Shown here piece by piece: positions 15,147 through 20,909 of a DNA stretch of 64,000 nucleotides. Numbering within the stretch: the first letter of the stretch is position 1; each line of letters opens with the position of its first letter. The notes under the pieces are model-generated. The model saw only the letters and a program-made list of their open reading frames with translations. It did no database searches and was not told where the DNA came from. The DNA comes from an uncultured Aminicenantes bacterium. GTDB lineage: Bacteria; Acidobacteriota; Aminicenantia; UBA2199. The translations under genes and the position numbers were made by a program. The stretch covers positions 17,022 to 81,021 of the forward strand of contig CBDAFS010000039.1 of the NCBI GenBank assembly GCA_965195285.1, in the 5' to 3' direction.

Positions 15147-16088
15147 TAAAATTTCTTATCCCCTCTTCTATTTTTACTTTAGGTTCATAATGTAATATTC
15201 TTTTGGATTTACTAATATCCGAAAAAGTAACAGGGGGGTCACCAGGTTGTTCAGGTAGATATTTTATATTTGCAGATTTATCTAAATTTTTTTCAACTAA
15301 CAAAATTAGATAAGAAAGATTTGTTGGTTTAGAATTACCGAGATTGAATATTTCATGATTAAAATCTTTATTTAAAATAGATATAATTCCTTCTACAATA
15401 TCAGATATATAAGTATAATCCCGGCTCGTTTTACCATTACCATATAAACAAATCTCTTTCTCTTCATTAATTAATTTAGTGAATTTATGAATAGCTATAT
15501 TCGGTCTTTGTCTTGGGCCATAAATTGTGAAAAAGCATAGTATTGTAATCGGAATATTATAAAGATGATTATATGCAGAACACAAAAGTTCACCCGCCCT
15601 TTTACTTACTCCATACGGCGAAATTGGTTTTAATTTGCCTTCTTCTGAAAAAGAAATTTCCTTTGTTGCTCCATAGACAGAGGAAGATGAACCAAAAATA
15701 AAATTCTTTATTTTATATTCTCTACTTAATTCTAAAAGATTCAAGGTCCCGCTTACATTTACATCTATATATATGTTAGGTTTTTTTAAAGATAATCTCA
15801 CTTCTGCCTGTGTTGCAAGATGAATTACTTTTTGAAAATTATATTTTTTAAATATCTTTTTTAAAGCATCCCTATCTCTAATATCTGCTTCTACTAAATT
15901 AAAATTTCTTTTTCTTAAAAAGGTTTAATATTATCTTTCTTTATTTCCGGATTATAATAATCATTGAAATTATCCAAACAAATTACTTCATGCCCATCTT
16001 CTAATAACCTTTTTATTAAATGACTTCCGATAAATCCCGCTCCACCAGTTACCAATATTTCTATATTATTTTTAATTTCATTATTCAT
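15118..16088 (-). pseudogene. NAD-dependent epimerase/dehydratase (SDR family) interrupted by a single-base frameshift
   Basis: An N-terminal Rossmann segment starts at 16088 ([43 protein letters not shown]) and hits a stop. It continues in another frame ([27 protein letters not shown], then ORF 15118..15801). One extra T in the T5 run near 15905-15912 restores a ~320-aa protein. This could be a genuine pseudogene or a sequencing error. Confidence 0.6.
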
Positions 16089-16986
16089 GCTTTTTCTCTT
16101 TATAATTCTTTATAAGCTTTACTGCAAAATCTGGTAATATATTCCTGATATATTTTTTAATATTTCTAATGAAATTTACCTTTTCTAATTCCTTCGTTAA
16201 TTTTAAATTATAATCTGTTCTCTGTTTAAATTCATAATTGACTATCTTAATTCTGGGATCAGTATAGCTCAGCAAAATCTCCGCCGTTCTACCAGCAGAA
16301 TCATCGTTAATTATTACAAGCTTAAAATCTTTGAAAGTTTGATTTAAGGCGTTATCAATTACTCCTTTGATATCTTTTTCACTATTATATGCAGACGCAA
16401 GCATTGTTACTCTATGCTTTAATTGATTCTTTAAAGCAAAATACACAATCGGGCCATCGCCACCCCTCTTGTTAACGTATTCAATAACTTCAAAATTTTC
16501 TTCTAATAAAATCTTGAGATAATCTTCCGGGTACTCAAATTTGTGATAAGGGTTACTGGTATCTCCGCCATTCTTATTAAGAATAGGGACCGATCCAACT
16601 ATTAAACCATCTCTTTTCACAACTCTTTTAATCTCATTTATAAATATAACTCCTTCCTCTTTAGTAATATGTTCTATGCCTTCAAAACACAATGCTACGT
16701 CAAATTTATTATCTTCAAAAAGTAGTTTACACATGGAACCTTGTGAAAAAATACCTTTAAAGTGGGAACGAGCATACTGAATTGCGCCTAACGAAATGTC
16801 CACACCATATACTTCATTAGCATTATCAATCAAAGAAGTCCCCCAACCAGAACCACAGGGAACATCCAATACAATCTTACCTTTTGTATATTTTTTCCCA
16901 AATTTATACCTCTCGATAAAAACATGATAATATTTAGTTTTATTTACATAAGCTAGTTCTTCAGGATATGCTCTTTCAGCCATCAT
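16081..16986 (-). CDS. Class I SAM-dependent methyltransferase fused to a truncated GT2 N-terminal remnant
   Basis: [13 protein letters not shown] (SAM motif I) in the N-terminal ~190 aa. The C-terminal ~100 aa ([43 protein letters not shown]) parallels the N-terminus of the GT2 at 14058-15146 and then stops. The start codon overlaps the upstream gene. Confidence 0.65.
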
Positions 16987-18833
16987 TAACTTTCCTTTTG
17001 TATAAGTTTTTTATCTTTTTTTCTTTTCTCCAAATACCATTCAAAAATTGGAGTATCAACTTGATTTATACTTCTATTAATATCACTATCACCACAAACA
17101 CCGTTAGGATACATACACTTACCTTTTTTTATATCTTCAAACAACTTTTGGGGAATATTTTCCCATATTTTATCAAAATTCTCTTTCTTTACATTACCCA
17201 TCTTCCGATCTTCACTTAATTTAAAATTACAGGGATAAACATCCCCGTTGGGAGCTAAATGGAAAAAAGTCTTACATGCATGGCATGGCATAATGCGTTT
17301 ATTTATTATTGAATCATAAAGATAACATGACTTAATATTTCCTTTATACTTTAAGAAATCTCCATGAACATCTTTAGTAAATTTAATTTTGTCAATACCA
17401 GTATAGCGTTCTAAAATAGGTATTAATTCAGAATTATTTTGAAAAACTAAATCTTCTTCTGTTGTACTAAAACGATCATTCATTACAGTCCAACATATAT
17501 GAACACCTAATCCTTTACTTTTGGCAAAATCTTGGACCCAATCGAAATACTCAACATTATCTCTAAGAAATGTAAAGCTAAAATCAACATTTGAAGAAAA
17601 TTCTTTCAATAATTCTGCCGTCCTTACAGTATTTTCAAAACTGCCATTTATACCCCTACTTTTATCATGTATTTTTTTAGGACCATTTAAACTTACACCA
17701 ATCAATGCCCATTTTAGATTGGGAGCAAGTGACTTTATTTTTTTAAAAAAATTATATGTCCTATCAGGATCATAGCCATTGGTCGTAATGCTAAACTTTG
17801 CTTTCTTTAATTTTTTATGAAGCGCTATCACTATTTCAGGAAAATCATTCCTCAATATTGGTTCTCCACCACTAAGAATCACTTCATTAACATCTTTTAA
17901 TAATTTATTATTTGTCAATTTATCTATATCATCAGAAGTAAGCTCCTCTTTTGGTAAGGTTTTATTCTTCCATATATTACAAGAAACGCATTTAAAATTA
18001 CACCGCCATGTCATTGTGTACCTAATACAAGTTATTGCGTCAAGCTTACTATCCTTAATTCTATCTTTTTGAAAAATTCTTTTTAATAACCTTTTTAATT
18101 TCTTCATTTTTGATACTATATTTTTCTGATTTTTTTTATTACCAATATCCTTTTCAAGAACACCCATCAAAATTGTGTGCCTGTTGTTCAGACAATCCTT
18201 TATCAGCACCTTTTCTCTCCAGTAAAAACCATATTTATTCATTAATTTTGAAATGCTAATAACATTAACTTTGTAGGGGTGCGCACTATCAGCATTTCTT
18301 TTCACTACCTTCCAAGAGGTGCCTGTATCCCCAATGTTTATCATAAACCACAATTCTCCGTCAGTTTTAAGAATATTAAAAATGGTATTGGTGGCAAGTT
18401 CGATATCTGAAACATGATCCAATACATTCCAACAGATAACAACATCAGCTTTAATATCAGTTTTATAGGTTTCTATTTCACTACAAATATATTTAACATT
18501 ATCATTAGAAAGATCCCACATTTTTTTATATTCATCTATAAGTGGATCTATTCCGATTGCAGTTGTATTGTTCAAATGGGAAATTACTGCGGTAGGTCCA
18601 CAACCAACCTCAATCACAACCTTATTTTTTAGGTCACTAATACTGCGATTTATATACATAAGACAGTATTTTCTGAAATAAATATTTGCAATTCTCCATT
18701 CATCAGGAGAGAATCCCTTCCATTCATTTTCCCTTATATTTGACCAAAAATCTAATTCTTCGATTTGTTTGGGTTTTAAACTACTTACATCCAATTCATC
18801 TCTAATTGTTTTTTGTTGCGATTTCTTCAGCAT
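16986..18833 (-). CDS. Methyltransferase / radical SAM (SPASM-type) fusion protein
   Basis: N-terminal VVIEVGCGPTAVISHL (SAM MTase fold). Then RCNFKCVSCNIW (CxxxCxxC radical-SAM cluster) and ILSGGEPIL. C-terminal Cys-rich SPASM-like segments (CHACKTFFHLAPNGDVYPCNF; KCMYPNGVCGD). 615 aa. Confidence 0.7.
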   Translation of the reverse strand: MLKKSQQKTIRDELDVSSLKPKQIEELDFWSNIRENEWKGFSPDEWRIANIYFRKYCLMYINRSISDLKNKVVIEVGCGPTAVISHLNNTTAIGIDPLIDEYKKMWDLSNDNVKYICSEIETYKTDIKADVVICWNVLDHVSDIELATNTIFNILKTDGELWFMINIGDTGTSWKVVKRNADSAHPYKVNVISISKLMNKYGFYWREKVLIKDCLNNRHTILMGVLEKDIGNKKNQKNIVSKMKKLKRLLKRIFQKDRIKDSKLDAITCIRYTMTWRCNFKCVSCNIWKNKTLPKEELTSDDIDKLTNNKLLKDVNEVILSGGEPILRNDFPEIVIALHKKLKKAKFSITTNGYDPDRTYNFFKKIKSLAPNLKWALIGVSLNGPKKIHDKSRGINGSFENTVRTAELLKEFSSNVDFSFTFLRDNVEYFDWVQDFAKSKGLGVHICWTVMNDRFSTTEEDLVFQNNSELIPILERYTGIDKIKFTKDVHGDFLKYKGNIKSCYLYDSIINKRIMPCHACKTFFHLAPNGDVYPCNFKLSEDRKMGNVKKENFDKIWENIPQKLFEDIKKGKCMYPNGVCGDSDINRSINQVDTPIFEWYLEKRKKDKKLIQKES

Positions 18834-20059: not shown

Positions 20060-20060
20060 C

Positions 20061-20909
20061 TTAAATTCTCTCTGCTACCCTGGTTTCGGTCAGGTGAAAA
20101 ACAAATAAGCAAAAAATAAAAACAAAAAAAGAAATAATAACGGAAACCCAAAAACCTGGCCATTCCTTCGAGTATCCGGTTAATATAAGATCCCTTGGCA
20201 CTGAAACAAGATAAAATAATGGATTATATTTTGTTATTTGAGCCAGAATCCCGGTGGTTGGCTTTGGATATAAGATGGGTGTTAAAAACATAAAAAACGT
20301 CATTAATATTGAAATAATATTTCCAATATCTCTCAAAATACCATTCAAAATTGATAGAATAAAACCAAGGCCAAGGGTTAAGATAAAGACTGGGAGTATA
20401 AGAATCGGAAATAAACATATGGCTGCATGTGGGGAATAACCATAAAATAAAAAAAGAATTCCTGCCAGAACAAATTGAATAAGGAAAGATACCAGTGATT
20501 GACCTATTGAAGCAATTACCAGTGATTTTTTTGAAAAGTTTATTTTTACAATCATCGATCCGGCCTTCACCAATGAATTTGAACCTGCAATAAGTCCTGA
20601 GGCAAACACCTGCCATATAGCAATTCCTAACACCGCAAAAATAGGATAGGGTACATCAATTTTCCCAAGGTTGAATATACCAGACCGATTAAGCATAATA
20701 AAAGTTCCTACACTAATAAGAGGAATTACAAAAGCCCATAAAACCCCGATAAATGATTGTTTATATATGCCCAGGAAATCTCTTTTAAAAAGTTGATAGA
20801 TTAACCAACGGCTTAGTTTTATTTCAGAAACAATCTCTTTAAAAATACAAAAATACCCATTCTTTAAAATATTGTCAGGTTCATATGTCTTTAATTTATT
20901 ATTATTCAT
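20061..20909 (-). CDS. wzm: ABC-2 type polysaccharide exporter permease (Wzm-like)
   Basis: 282 aa, 6 predicted TM segments. Immediately upstream of the Wzt NBD gene. Confidence 0.75.
   Translation of the reverse strand: MNNNKLKTYEPDNILKNGYFCIFKEIVSEIKLSRWLIYQLFKRDFLGIYKQSFIGVLWAFVIPLISVGTFIMLNRSGIFNLGKIDVPYPIFAVLGIAIWQVFASGLIAGSNSLVKAGSMIVKINFSKKSLVIASIGQSLVSFLIQFVLAGILFLFYGYSPHAAICLFPILILPVFILTLGLGFILSILNGILRDIGNIISILMTFFMFLTPILYPKPTTGILAQITKYNPLFYLVSVPRDLILTGYSKEWPGFWVSVIISFFVFIFCLFVFHLTETRVAERI

Follow-up and report, generated by a model that had tools for sequence, protein, structure and literature searches.

We analysed a 64,000-nucleotide (nt) stretch of DNA from an uncultured Aminicenantes bacterium (contig CBDAFS010000039.1; hereafter the window), focusing on the export-and-modification end of an ATP-binding cassette (ABC) transporter-dependent glycan locus of the O-polysaccharide type. 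The locus spans about 6.2-23.8 kb of the window, with all genes tightly packed on the minus strand (Table 1). The exporter genes wzm and wzt are followed by a gene for a 615-aa protein that fuses a class-I S-adenosylmethionine (SAM) methyltransferase (MT_N) to a radical SAM enzyme, then by a second methyltransferase gene (MT301) and by glycosyltransferase (GT2) genes. The transporter and the methyltransferases are ordinary and the fusion is a one-off; what appears to be new is the recurring radical SAM cassette behind a Wzt that carries a carbohydrate-binding domain (CBD), together with an orphan radical SAM family. The four genes from wzm to MT301 are as first described, all open reading frames (ORFs) being present at their minus-strand coordinates with domain matches that agree. 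They lie in a low-GC stretch (27-33%, vs about 40% for the window), and the gaps around the 615-aa gene are 35 nt on the Wzt side and 0 nt on the MT301 side.

Residues 48-341 of the window Wzt align (phmmer) to the full-length Aquifex aeolicus Wzt (8dku/7k2t) with an E-value of 1e-60, TagH/Wzt models are its top NCBIfam matches, and its nucleotide-binding domain (NBD) is 66-83% identical to those of loci L002, L004, L007, L010 and L016 and 51% identical to that of L012. The window Wzm matches its counterparts in the syntenic loci L002 (8e-128) and L016 (2e-153). The Pfam Wzt_C model gives no match on the Wzt tail. An AlphaFold model of residues 230-396, computed with 20 homologues as input, has an all-beta fold (pLDDT 81), and in a Foldseek comparison with the PDB, Wzt chains take all of the top 15 places (E-values 2e-7 to 2e-5; TM-scores 0.52-0.59 normalised to the query and 0.58-0.65 against isolated CBD chains): Raoultella O12 (5hno/5hnp), the isolated A. 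aeolicus domain (6o14 and 8dky, the latter with bound 3-O-methyl-mannose), full-length A. aeolicus transporter chains (8dku, 8dl0, 8dne, 7k2t), and E. coli O9a (2r5o), the structure with which a comparison had been proposed. As modelled, the C-terminus of Wzt is a carbohydrate-binding domain of the Wzt-CBD fold, in agreement with the carbohydrate-binding tail of the preliminary description. The motif LFWWRIP is invariant in the clade of CBDs to which it belongs.

CBDs of this kind are found in systems whose polymer has a non-reducing-end cap (methyl, methyl-phosphate or 3-deoxy-D-manno-octulosonic acid, Kdo), which halts elongation, licenses export and is recognised by the CBD (PMC9445017, PMC11231755). 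A Wzt with a CBD is known from capped systems only (PMC9445017), so some cap enzyme must be encoded.

Table 1. Genes and features of the glycan locus (positions in the window)
Feature	Position	Strand	Remarks
phosphohexomutase (PGM)	22388-23797	(-)	first in transcription order of the locus
2-hydroxyacid dehydrogenase (D-2-hydroxyacid/phosphoglycerate dehydrogenase-like)	20966-21916	(-)	directly upstream of wzm and part of the low-GC island
wzm, ABC-2 permease of the glycan exporter, 282 aa	20061-20909	(-)	PF01061 ABC2_membrane, E 4e-13
wzt, whole gene, 396 aa	18869-20059	(-)	directly after wzm, 1 base between
wzt, nucleotide-binding domain, residues 1-245	19325-20059	(-)	PF00005 ABC_tran at residues 54-184
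wzt, predicted C-terminal carbohydrate-binding domain, residues 246-396	18869-19324, stop codon included	(-)	AlphaFold model and Foldseek
615-aa methyltransferase and radical SAM fusion	16986-18833	(-)	Methyltransf_23 67-203, Radical_SAM 275-433, SPASM 517-566 (E 7e-8)
MT_N, class-I SAM methyltransferase half, residues 1-251	18082-18833	(-)	Methyltransf_23/11
fusion joint and recombination breakpoint (…SKMKKLKRLLK / RIFQK…)	18081-18109	(-)	43-nt gap vs L009; similarity switch
radical SAM enzyme with reduced SPASM/twitch-like auxiliary domain, residues 252-615	16986-18081	(-)	PF04055, PF13186
MT301, 301 aa, class-I SAM methyltransferase (residues ~30-135) with GT2 N-terminal remnant	16081-16986	(-)	Methyltransf_11 at 40-130, E 1e-16; GT2 at 199-252, E 5e-9
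SDR epimerase/dehydratase gene, 1-nt deletion near 15925-15930	15118-16088	(-)	N-terminus with GGAGFIGS in the other frame
GT2a glycosyltransferase, third member of the radical SAM-methyltransferase-GT2 module	14058-15146	(-)	PF00535, E 1e-34
GT2b glycosyltransferase	13016-13966	(-)	PF00535, E 2e-36; 7e-125 to L016, 1e-105 to L007
AsnB-type amidotransferase	11036-12973	(-)	
GT4	9796-11055	(-)	
300-aa ORF without Pfam match	8847-9749	(-)	
PMT_2/ArnT-like membrane glycosyltransferase	7280-8803	(-)	
second GT4	6204-7280	(-)	

Origin of the methyltransferase-radical SAM fusion

The reading frame of the fusion is uninterrupted, and a good Shine-Dalgarno sequence (AAGAGG, 18839-18844) precedes its ATG at 18833. 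We searched 5.8 billion proteins with the full 615-aa query (106 matches), used MT_N (residues 1-242) as a separate query (52 matches), and scanned 1.84 billion cluster representatives exhaustively with HMMER for proteins matching both halves. About 80 close relatives of the fusion (40-97% identity) are all 347-421 aa long and cover only its C-terminal 60%, i.e. the radical SAM part, which is 97% identical to a standalone 379-aa protein (P0001). None of the approximately 35 close relatives of MT_N (55-83% identity) has a Radical_SAM domain; those of full length are methyltransferases that stand alone (215-262 aa), and a few of the matches are shorter fragments. No fused homologue of the same architecture occurs among the 106 and 52 matches, and no protein closely matching both halves among the 1.84 billion representatives, for which the top matches were a radical SAM-only protein (435 bits) and a methyltransferase-only protein (337 bits).

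Related loci hold the two halves as separate genes or the radical SAM gene alone. L001 is 98% identical in the radical SAM gene and the downstream methyltransferase gene, with 50 nt between the Wzt stop and the start of its radical SAM gene and no methyltransferase upstream; L002, L029 and L033 likewise have the radical SAM gene behind Wzt without an upstream methyltransferase. In a metagenome contig (L009), a 253-aa methyltransferase (83% identical) ends in …SKMKKLKRLLKVRS-stop and, 4 nt on, the radical SAM protein starts with MKKLKSALRRIFQKEK…; across the joint the window reads …SKMKKLKRLLK-RIFQKDR…. The alignment of the window with L009 has a single long gap, 43 nt missing in the window at the joint, which takes out the AAGGAG ribosome-binding site together with the last 3 methyltransferase codons and stop before it and the ATG and 9 codons of the radical SAM gene after it. 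Short similar sequences lie at the joint (MKKLKRLLK in the MT_N tail and MKKLKSALRR in the radical SAM head; the repeat matches at 26/43 positions), and because the copies of 'ATG AAG/AAA AAA/AAG' are each in frame in their own gene, dropping one 43-nt period makes the two frames continuous. The joint also separates two similarity segments: positions 19919-18081 (Wzt and MT_N) match L027 at 86% of nucleotides, with similarity stopping at 18081 (in L027, MT_N ends at a stop of its own and the gene after it encodes a radical SAM protein of a different subclade), and positions 18109-14848 match L033/L029 at 92%, with similarity starting at 18109.

These alignments show that a recombination joined an L027-like Wzt and MT_N segment to an L001/L033-like radical SAM-MT301-SDR segment, after which a 43-nt deletion between the short similar sequences made the in-frame fusion with both catalytic domains intact. 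Since the halves are separate neighbouring genes in L009 and the window has the 43-nt gap, the fusion is, as judged from these comparisons, lineage-specific, real in the assembled sequence and derived from two genes that were already adjacent. The fusion noted in the preliminary description is an accident of one lineage and no conserved architecture, all close homologues being separate proteins. Both halves keep the residues that are invariant in their families (the SAM motif VIEVGCGP; CX3CX2C and C447/C517/C535/C573/C580), and the residues lost at the joint (3 of the methyltransferase and about 9 of the radical SAM protein) lie outside the folded cores. A dependence of the fusion on the A8 run at 18127-18134, where one A less would create a stop just before the internal ATG, was considered and rejected, as standalone methyltransferase homologues keep this frame across the run (NKENQKNIISKMKKLK).

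Downstream of the fusion, MT301 had been described as a methyltransferase fused to a decayed GT2 N-terminus, and both parts were confirmed. The GT2 remnant (residues 192-267, nt 16186-16413, minus strand) is 50% identical to GT2a residues 10-79 (14910-15119) and is a partial duplicate of the 5' end of GT2a without the DxD region. This tail is probably a recombination scar, and it is kept in L002, L029 and L033 (296-310 aa proteins). MT301 orthologues directly follow the radical SAM gene in L001, L002, L029 and L033. The SDR gene is split by its 1-nt deletion, with the GGAGFIGS N-terminus in one frame and the remainder (a 227-aa ORF) in another; in L033 the orthologous frame runs unbroken for 330 codons from stop to stop, and the only gap of the 3.26-kb alignment is this one base, absent from the window. 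The split gene is either a pseudogene or the result of a base-calling error. Elsewhere in the 64-kb window, coding is dense and clean.

The radical SAM family and its genomic context

For the radical SAM family we aligned 28 members (40-96% identity), which come from metagenome-assembled genomes (MAGs) of Omnitrophota, Marinimicrobia, Aminicenantes, Acidobacteria, Pirellulales and Porticoccus and from Hod-, Loki- and Promethearchaeota. The CX3CX2C motif (CNFKCVSC at 17979-18002; C278/C282/C285) is invariant in all 28. Further conserved cysteines (fusion numbering) are C447 (ICWTVMN), C517, C535 (GxxxxPCNF), and C573 and C580 (CMYPNGxCGDSD), 4-5 in all; the second Cys of the window 'CHAC' is not conserved. 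The seven-Cys motif of SPASM domains, CX9-15GX4C ... CX2CX5CX3C ... C, ligates two auxiliary clusters. Its CX2CX5CX3C block is absent from the 28-member alignment, and with it the full seven-Cys motif; the conserved SPASM-like remainder consists of CX17C with GX4C (C517, C535) plus C573, C580 and C447, and the Pfam SPASM match takes in the first half of the domain only (residues 517-566). Given only 4-5 extra conserved cysteines and no CX2CX5CX3C block, a twitch-like auxiliary domain with one cluster is more likely than a full two-cluster SPASM domain. Of the radical SAM domain with SPASM-like cysteines that was described at the outset, the CNFKCVSC core and the SPASM match stand, and the cysteine set is reduced. 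No PF02310 (B12-binding) domain was matched by Pfam in the window protein.

The best NCBIfam matches of the radical SAM protein are AhbC, NirJ, AhbD and MftC, at 77-86 bits vs cut-offs of 265-650 (66-86 bits over all of the best scores), and the models for maturases of ribosomally synthesised and post-translationally modified peptides (RiPPs) and for anaerobic sulfatase-maturating enzymes (anSME), including PapB, MftC and anSME, score 51-79 bits vs the same cut-offs. An assignment to a named family was dropped, as both NCBIfam and the PDB sequence/profile searches gave only sub-threshold matches (AhbC/NirJ/MftC/anSME/CteB). Searched against the PDB, the family profile matches CteB, anSME, SkfB and MoaA, with its C-terminal part aligning to the twitch domain of BtrN. 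The AlphaFold model (pLDDT 85) has SkfB, CteB, BlsE, anSME, MoaA and SuiB as Foldseek neighbours; the peptide maturases, BlsE, anSME and MoaA lie within about one order of magnitude in E-value, singling out no functional subfamily, and the best TM-score is that to BlsE (0.59/0.66). The placement by profile proposed earlier puts the protein outside the housekeeping families, with all NCBIfam scores far under the cut-offs, and by these scores the family is a distinct, uncharacterised member of the SPASM/twitch group.

No RiPP recognition element (RRE) and no sulfatase gene were found at the operon by Pfam, there is no spare ORF space for a precursor peptide, and the standalone radical SAM proteins begin about 25-45 aa ahead of CX3CX2C, with no RRE-sized N-terminus. 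In distant relatives (27-31% identity), the fusion partner is a class-I methyltransferase placed after the radical SAM part (P0187, P0203; 28-31% identity), a polysaccharide pyruvyl transferase (P0260, P0310) or a GT4 (P0329). P0084, P0089 and P0093 are further distant relatives with a fusion to one of these three kinds of domain, and P0252 (1019 aa) holds a SPASM-type and a B12-type radical SAM part in one protein.

We surveyed 16 genome loci, 13 of which (L011-L023) hold the window family (42-76% identical); the remaining 3 hold distant relatives only (23-29%). A class-I methyltransferase gene lies within a few hundred bases of the radical SAM gene in 10/13 family loci, usually right downstream of it and followed by a GT2 gene (L011, L015-L019, L021), and upstream of it or on the other strand in L020, L022 and L023. 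Glycan genes surround the radical SAM gene in 13/13, in bacteria and in Asgard archaea. Among the radical SAM loci scored, only the closer relatives (window, L001, L002, L012, L016) have Wzm-Wzt directly upstream; all loci considered, the cassette directly follows Wzt in these and in L029, L033, L063 and L097. A GT2a-like gene comes after the methyltransferase gene in L015-L019, L021, L029, L033, L063 and L097, and also after cassettes with a B12-type radical SAM gene. The context speaks for glycan modification throughout and nowhere for peptides.

Every recovered locus has a radical SAM gene downstream of MT_N. The next gene is of the twitch-like type in L009 and L027 and has a B12-binding domain (440-460 aa) in L004-6, L007/8 and L010; in L003, MT_N is the C-terminal domain of a GT2-methyltransferase fusion with a B12-type gene next to it, and in L040 a GT2 gene and a divergent SPASM-type radical SAM gene lie between MT_N and the B12-type gene. 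The Wzt on these contigs is of the CBD-bearing kind in L004-6, L007/8, L010, L027 and L040; the fetched stretch of L003 has no Wzt, and the L009 contig is short.

A metagenome scan for the CBD clade of the window gave 80 loci, of which the 47 with at least 2 kb downstream were scored over 3 kb from the Wzt stop. A B12-type radical SAM gene lies within this distance in 20/47 and a twitch-like (SPASM-type) one in 7/47 (either type, 27/47), and 6/47 have methyltransferase genes only. About 22 of the 25 CBDs closest to that of the window have a radical SAM gene. Both cassette types share MT301-like methyltransferases (E 1e-45 to 1e-50 in the B12-type cassettes) and GT2a-like transferases. The CBD clade usually precedes a cassette of class-I methyltransferase(s), radical SAM and GT2 genes, which comes in two alternative kinds.

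The B12-type cassettes downstream of Wzt (L037-L048, L051, L053-L055, L059, L061, L062, L065, L068, L072, L093, L096) comprise one or two class-I methyltransferases, a B12-type radical SAM protein of 430-480 aa, for which the nearest solved structure is the sugar diol-dehydratase AprD4, and a GT2a-like gene; in L043, the B12-type radical SAM and GT2 parts share one 667-codon stop-to-stop reading frame. In one B12-type cassette (L007, 8470-9969; L008, 1623-3122), a 499-aa Sulfatase-family protein (PF00884) is encoded between Wzt and MT_N. Phosphoethanolamine and phosphoglycerol transferases also belong to the Sulfatase superfamily, a hint that the cap in question might contain a phospho-substituent.

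Some observations concern the neighbouring genes. In the nearest syntenic genome, a Candidatus Aminicenantes MAG (L016), the order is PGM-Wzm-Wzt-radical SAM-methyltransferase-GT2a-GT2b-…-GT4-SDR. The 2-hydroxyacid dehydrogenase gene (20966-21916) is missing there, PGM directly preceding Wzm; its product could furnish glycerate, lactate or another non-sugar substituent. Relatives seem to have an insertion hot spot at the wzm-wzt junction, with a PDDEXK_3 gene in L002 (8334-8714), a 23S_rRNA_IVP gene in L007 (6700-7059), and PIN/AF2212-like toxin-antitoxin genes plus duplicated Wzt NBD fragments in L004/L005 (400-3900); the window junction is free of inserts. A second low-GC island (27-30%) lies at 56000-64000 of the window, with a flip of GC skew at about 60 kb. 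It contains a 264-aa ORF without Pfam match (57905-58699) and a C-5 cytosine DNA methylase gene (60082-61314) followed by a gene for a 698-aa protein with two HATPase_c-type domains (61307-63403), a pair that looks like a restriction-modification or defence module.

Proposed role of the cassette and comparison with known systems

In the arrangement that we propose, Wzm and Wzt would export the polymer and the CBD of Wzt would read its cap, with the modification cassette encoded directly downstream: MT_N, a radical SAM enzyme that probably has one auxiliary Fe-S cluster, MT301, and then GT2 transferases. The cassette would act on the glycan, with the non-reducing terminal sugar as the likeliest site. 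The radical SAM enzyme may abstract a sugar hydrogen, as BtrN and BlsE do, with oxidation, epimerisation, deoxygenation or a C-C/C-methyl change as the possible outcome; the methyltransferases would add methyl group(s), and the CBD would read the product before export. The fusion may merely fix a 1:1 pairing of two enzymes already cooperating. Our confidence that a glycan-modifying cassette is functionally tied to the CBD transporter is evenly balanced, and the occurrence of such cassettes behind the CBD clade in 27/47 loci fits a link between the cassette and the target of the CBD. The narrower claim counted within it, that the cassette makes the cap itself, is put forward tentatively. We are similarly cautious about a broader proposal, i.e. 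that this CBD clade, widespread in uncultured sediment and subsurface bacteria, reads a radical-made non-reducing-end modification whose maker is either of two interchangeable radical SAM enzymes, of the twitch-like or the B12-type family, together with class-I methyltransferases. The weights that we attach to these and the following explanations overlap and do not sum to one.

Several observations weigh against the proposed link. Most of the distant radical SAM-methyltransferase-GT2 loci lack Wzm/Wzt within 10 kb, which means that capped systems are not the only setting of the module, and 14/47 loci of the CBD clade have neither a radical SAM nor a methyltransferase gene nearby. A seven-locus comparison had suggested that the type of CBD tracks the type of radical SAM protein; this was withdrawn after the 80-locus scan, in which the clade is more often found before B12-type genes. 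Known terminators carry a long coiled coil that acts as a molecular ruler (PMC11231755), for which the fusion linker and the MT301 tail leave at most about 35 unassigned residues (the C-terminus of GT2a, about 150 aa, lay outside this check), and Pfam matched no kinase domain in either methyltransferase protein. The SDR gene of the same operon is frameshifted, so the locus may be in decay, and the fusion perhaps inactive. No paper with biochemistry on any member of the radical SAM family was found in the open-access full text. The chain-terminating machinery of the preliminary description is upheld in part: the cassettes recur behind the CBD clade, but coiled coil and kinase are missing, and as the module also occurs without Wzm/Wzt in most of the distant genomes, cap formation is one possible role. 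The two class-I methyltransferase domains are candidates for a cap-adding catalytic domain.

There is an alternative that we consider possible, at a confidence well short of even: the module makes or decorates a repeat-unit sugar, a nucleotide-sugar or a lipid-linked precursor (e.g. a methylated, oxidised or deoxy sugar made without oxygen) rather than a cap, and its adjacency to Wzt is the usual packing of serotype-specific genes. Besides the module without Wzm/Wzt within 10 kb (L015, L017-L021, L023) and the missing coiled-coil and kinase features of known terminators (PMC11231755), it is favoured by GT2 as the constant third member, as expected if a modified sugar needs transfer, and by the presence of BlsE, which acts on a free nucleoside-sugar, among the structural neighbours with the best TM-scores. 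It is harder to reconcile with the cassette standing immediately after Wzt in the window and in L001, L002, L012, L016, L029, L033, L063 and L097, with the closest CBD relatives being nearly always accompanied by a radical SAM and methyltransferase cassette, and with the restriction of CBD-type Wzt to capped systems (PMC9445017), which need a cap enzyme for which no other candidate was seen in the locus. That the radical SAM protein is a peptide-modifying SPASM maturase (for RiPPs or sulfatases) merely beside glycan genes is highly improbable: the best PDB sequence and structure matches (CteB, SkfB, anSME, SuiB) and the NCBIfam matches to PapB, MftC and anSME would suggest it, but all such matches are far under the family cut-offs, the locus has no RRE, short-ORF space or sulfatase, the full 7-Cys SPASM motif is absent, and the family lies among glycan genes in 13/13 loci, with relatives fused to glycan enzymes.

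For the fusion itself, we think it unlikely that it is no more than a recombination scar, a lesion in a locus that is decaying or has lately recombined, with one or both halves inactive. Its uniqueness among about 80 radical SAM and 50 methyltransferase relatives and 1.84 billion representatives, its position exactly at the mosaic breakpoint, the loss of the radical SAM gene's Shine-Dalgarno sequence and start codon, the 1-nt deletion in the downstream SDR gene and the dead partial copy of GT2a in MT301 would all fit such a lesion; yet both domains retain every family-invariant residue, the few residues lost fall outside the folded cores, the remaining window is cleanly coding, and independent radical SAM-methyltransferase fusions in distant relatives (P0187, P0203) show that covalent pairing is tolerated. 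More improbable still is an assembly or sequencing artefact, the genes being really separate as in L009. The unfused state does exist in that related contig, and the nearby 1-nt indel in the SDR gene might be an error as well, but a clean, frame-preserving 43-nt deletion is atypical of sequencing error, the flanking repeat is short and imperfect (26/43 positions), making assembler collapse unlikely, and the window genes are otherwise intact.

In ABC-transporter-dependent glycan assembly the cap sets chain length and licenses export. If the proposed role is true, the cassette would provide a new chemical class of glycan chain terminator (e.g. a C-methylated, oxidised, or deoxygenated and methylated terminal sugar) and the first radical SAM step in the assembly of such polysaccharides; were it to make the cap, a large orphan radical SAM family would also gain a functional handle. 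A radical SAM gene beside a dedicated cap-reading clade, in a module conserved from bacteria to Asgard archaea, points to an uncharacterised, probably oxygen-independent sugar modification. The pairing of the radical SAM cassette with CBD-type Wzt recurs across many uncultured microbes and seems to be undescribed: no report was found in the open-access full-text literature that ties a radical SAM protein to Wzm/Wzt or to a glycan cap, and in leads on Xanthomonas, Burkholderia and C. jejuni HS:19 the radical SAM mentions are unrelated genes. The fusion serves as a natural 'Rosetta stone' arguing that MT_N and the radical SAM enzyme act together, and as a ready-made single-polypeptide construct for expression.

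To our knowledge, the caps known so far are all made by ordinary methyltransferases, kinases or Kdo transferases, and no characterised cap pathway uses a radical SAM protein. The window resembles the exporters of capped substrates (A. aeolicus WzmWzt, E. coli O9a/O8, Klebsiella O12) in having Wzm and Wzt, with the NBD match to A. aeolicus given above, in a predicted C-terminal jelly-roll whose best matches are exactly those CBDs, and in encoding SAM-dependent methyltransferases beside the transporter, as for methyl and methyl-phosphate caps (PMC9445017, PMC11231755). It differs in a CBD that is missed by Pfam Wzt_C and makes up its own clade, in a radical SAM protein among the neighbours, and in the lack of a coiled-coil terminator and of a kinase at the locus. 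WbdD, the chain terminator of E. coli O9a/O8, is a methyltransferase with or without a kinase and has a coiled-coil ruler; it shares with the window a class-I SAM methyltransferase in an ABC-transporter locus with CBD-type Wzt; in contrast, MT_N and MT301 are small single-domain methyltransferases without a kinase or a segment long enough for a coiled coil, and they are partnered with a radical SAM enzyme. The cassettes with a B12 (class B-like) radical SAM protein occupy the same slot after Wzt, with MT301-like methyltransferases and before GT2a, and MT_N precedes both kinds; their radical SAM protein has a B12-binding plus radical SAM architecture without a SPASM domain, and is absent from the window.

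Among radical SAM enzymes, CteB, SkfB, SuiB and anSMEcpe have the best raw sequence and Foldseek E-values and share the Pfam SPASM match, whereas the window has no RRE, no precursor peptide or sulfatase gene, a reduced cysteine set and a glycan context. The sugar-acting twitch/SPASM group includes the dehydrogenase BtrN and the decarboxylase BlsE, twitch enzymes that abstract a sugar hydrogen (in BlsE from a free nucleoside-sugar), as well as NeoN/HygY-type epimerases. With BtrN and BlsE the window protein shares the CX3CX2C core and a C-terminal Cys-rich domain sufficient for one auxiliary cluster; the twitch domain of BtrN aligns with the C-terminal region of the family profile, and BlsE comes closest to the predicted structure by TM-score and is likewise carbohydrate-related in context. 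Sequence identity is just 12-18%, however; the window family has its own invariant motifs (ICWTVMNxRF, YPCNFKL, CMYPNGxCGDSD), and its substrate is presumably a polymer or a lipid-linked glycan rather than an antibiotic intermediate.

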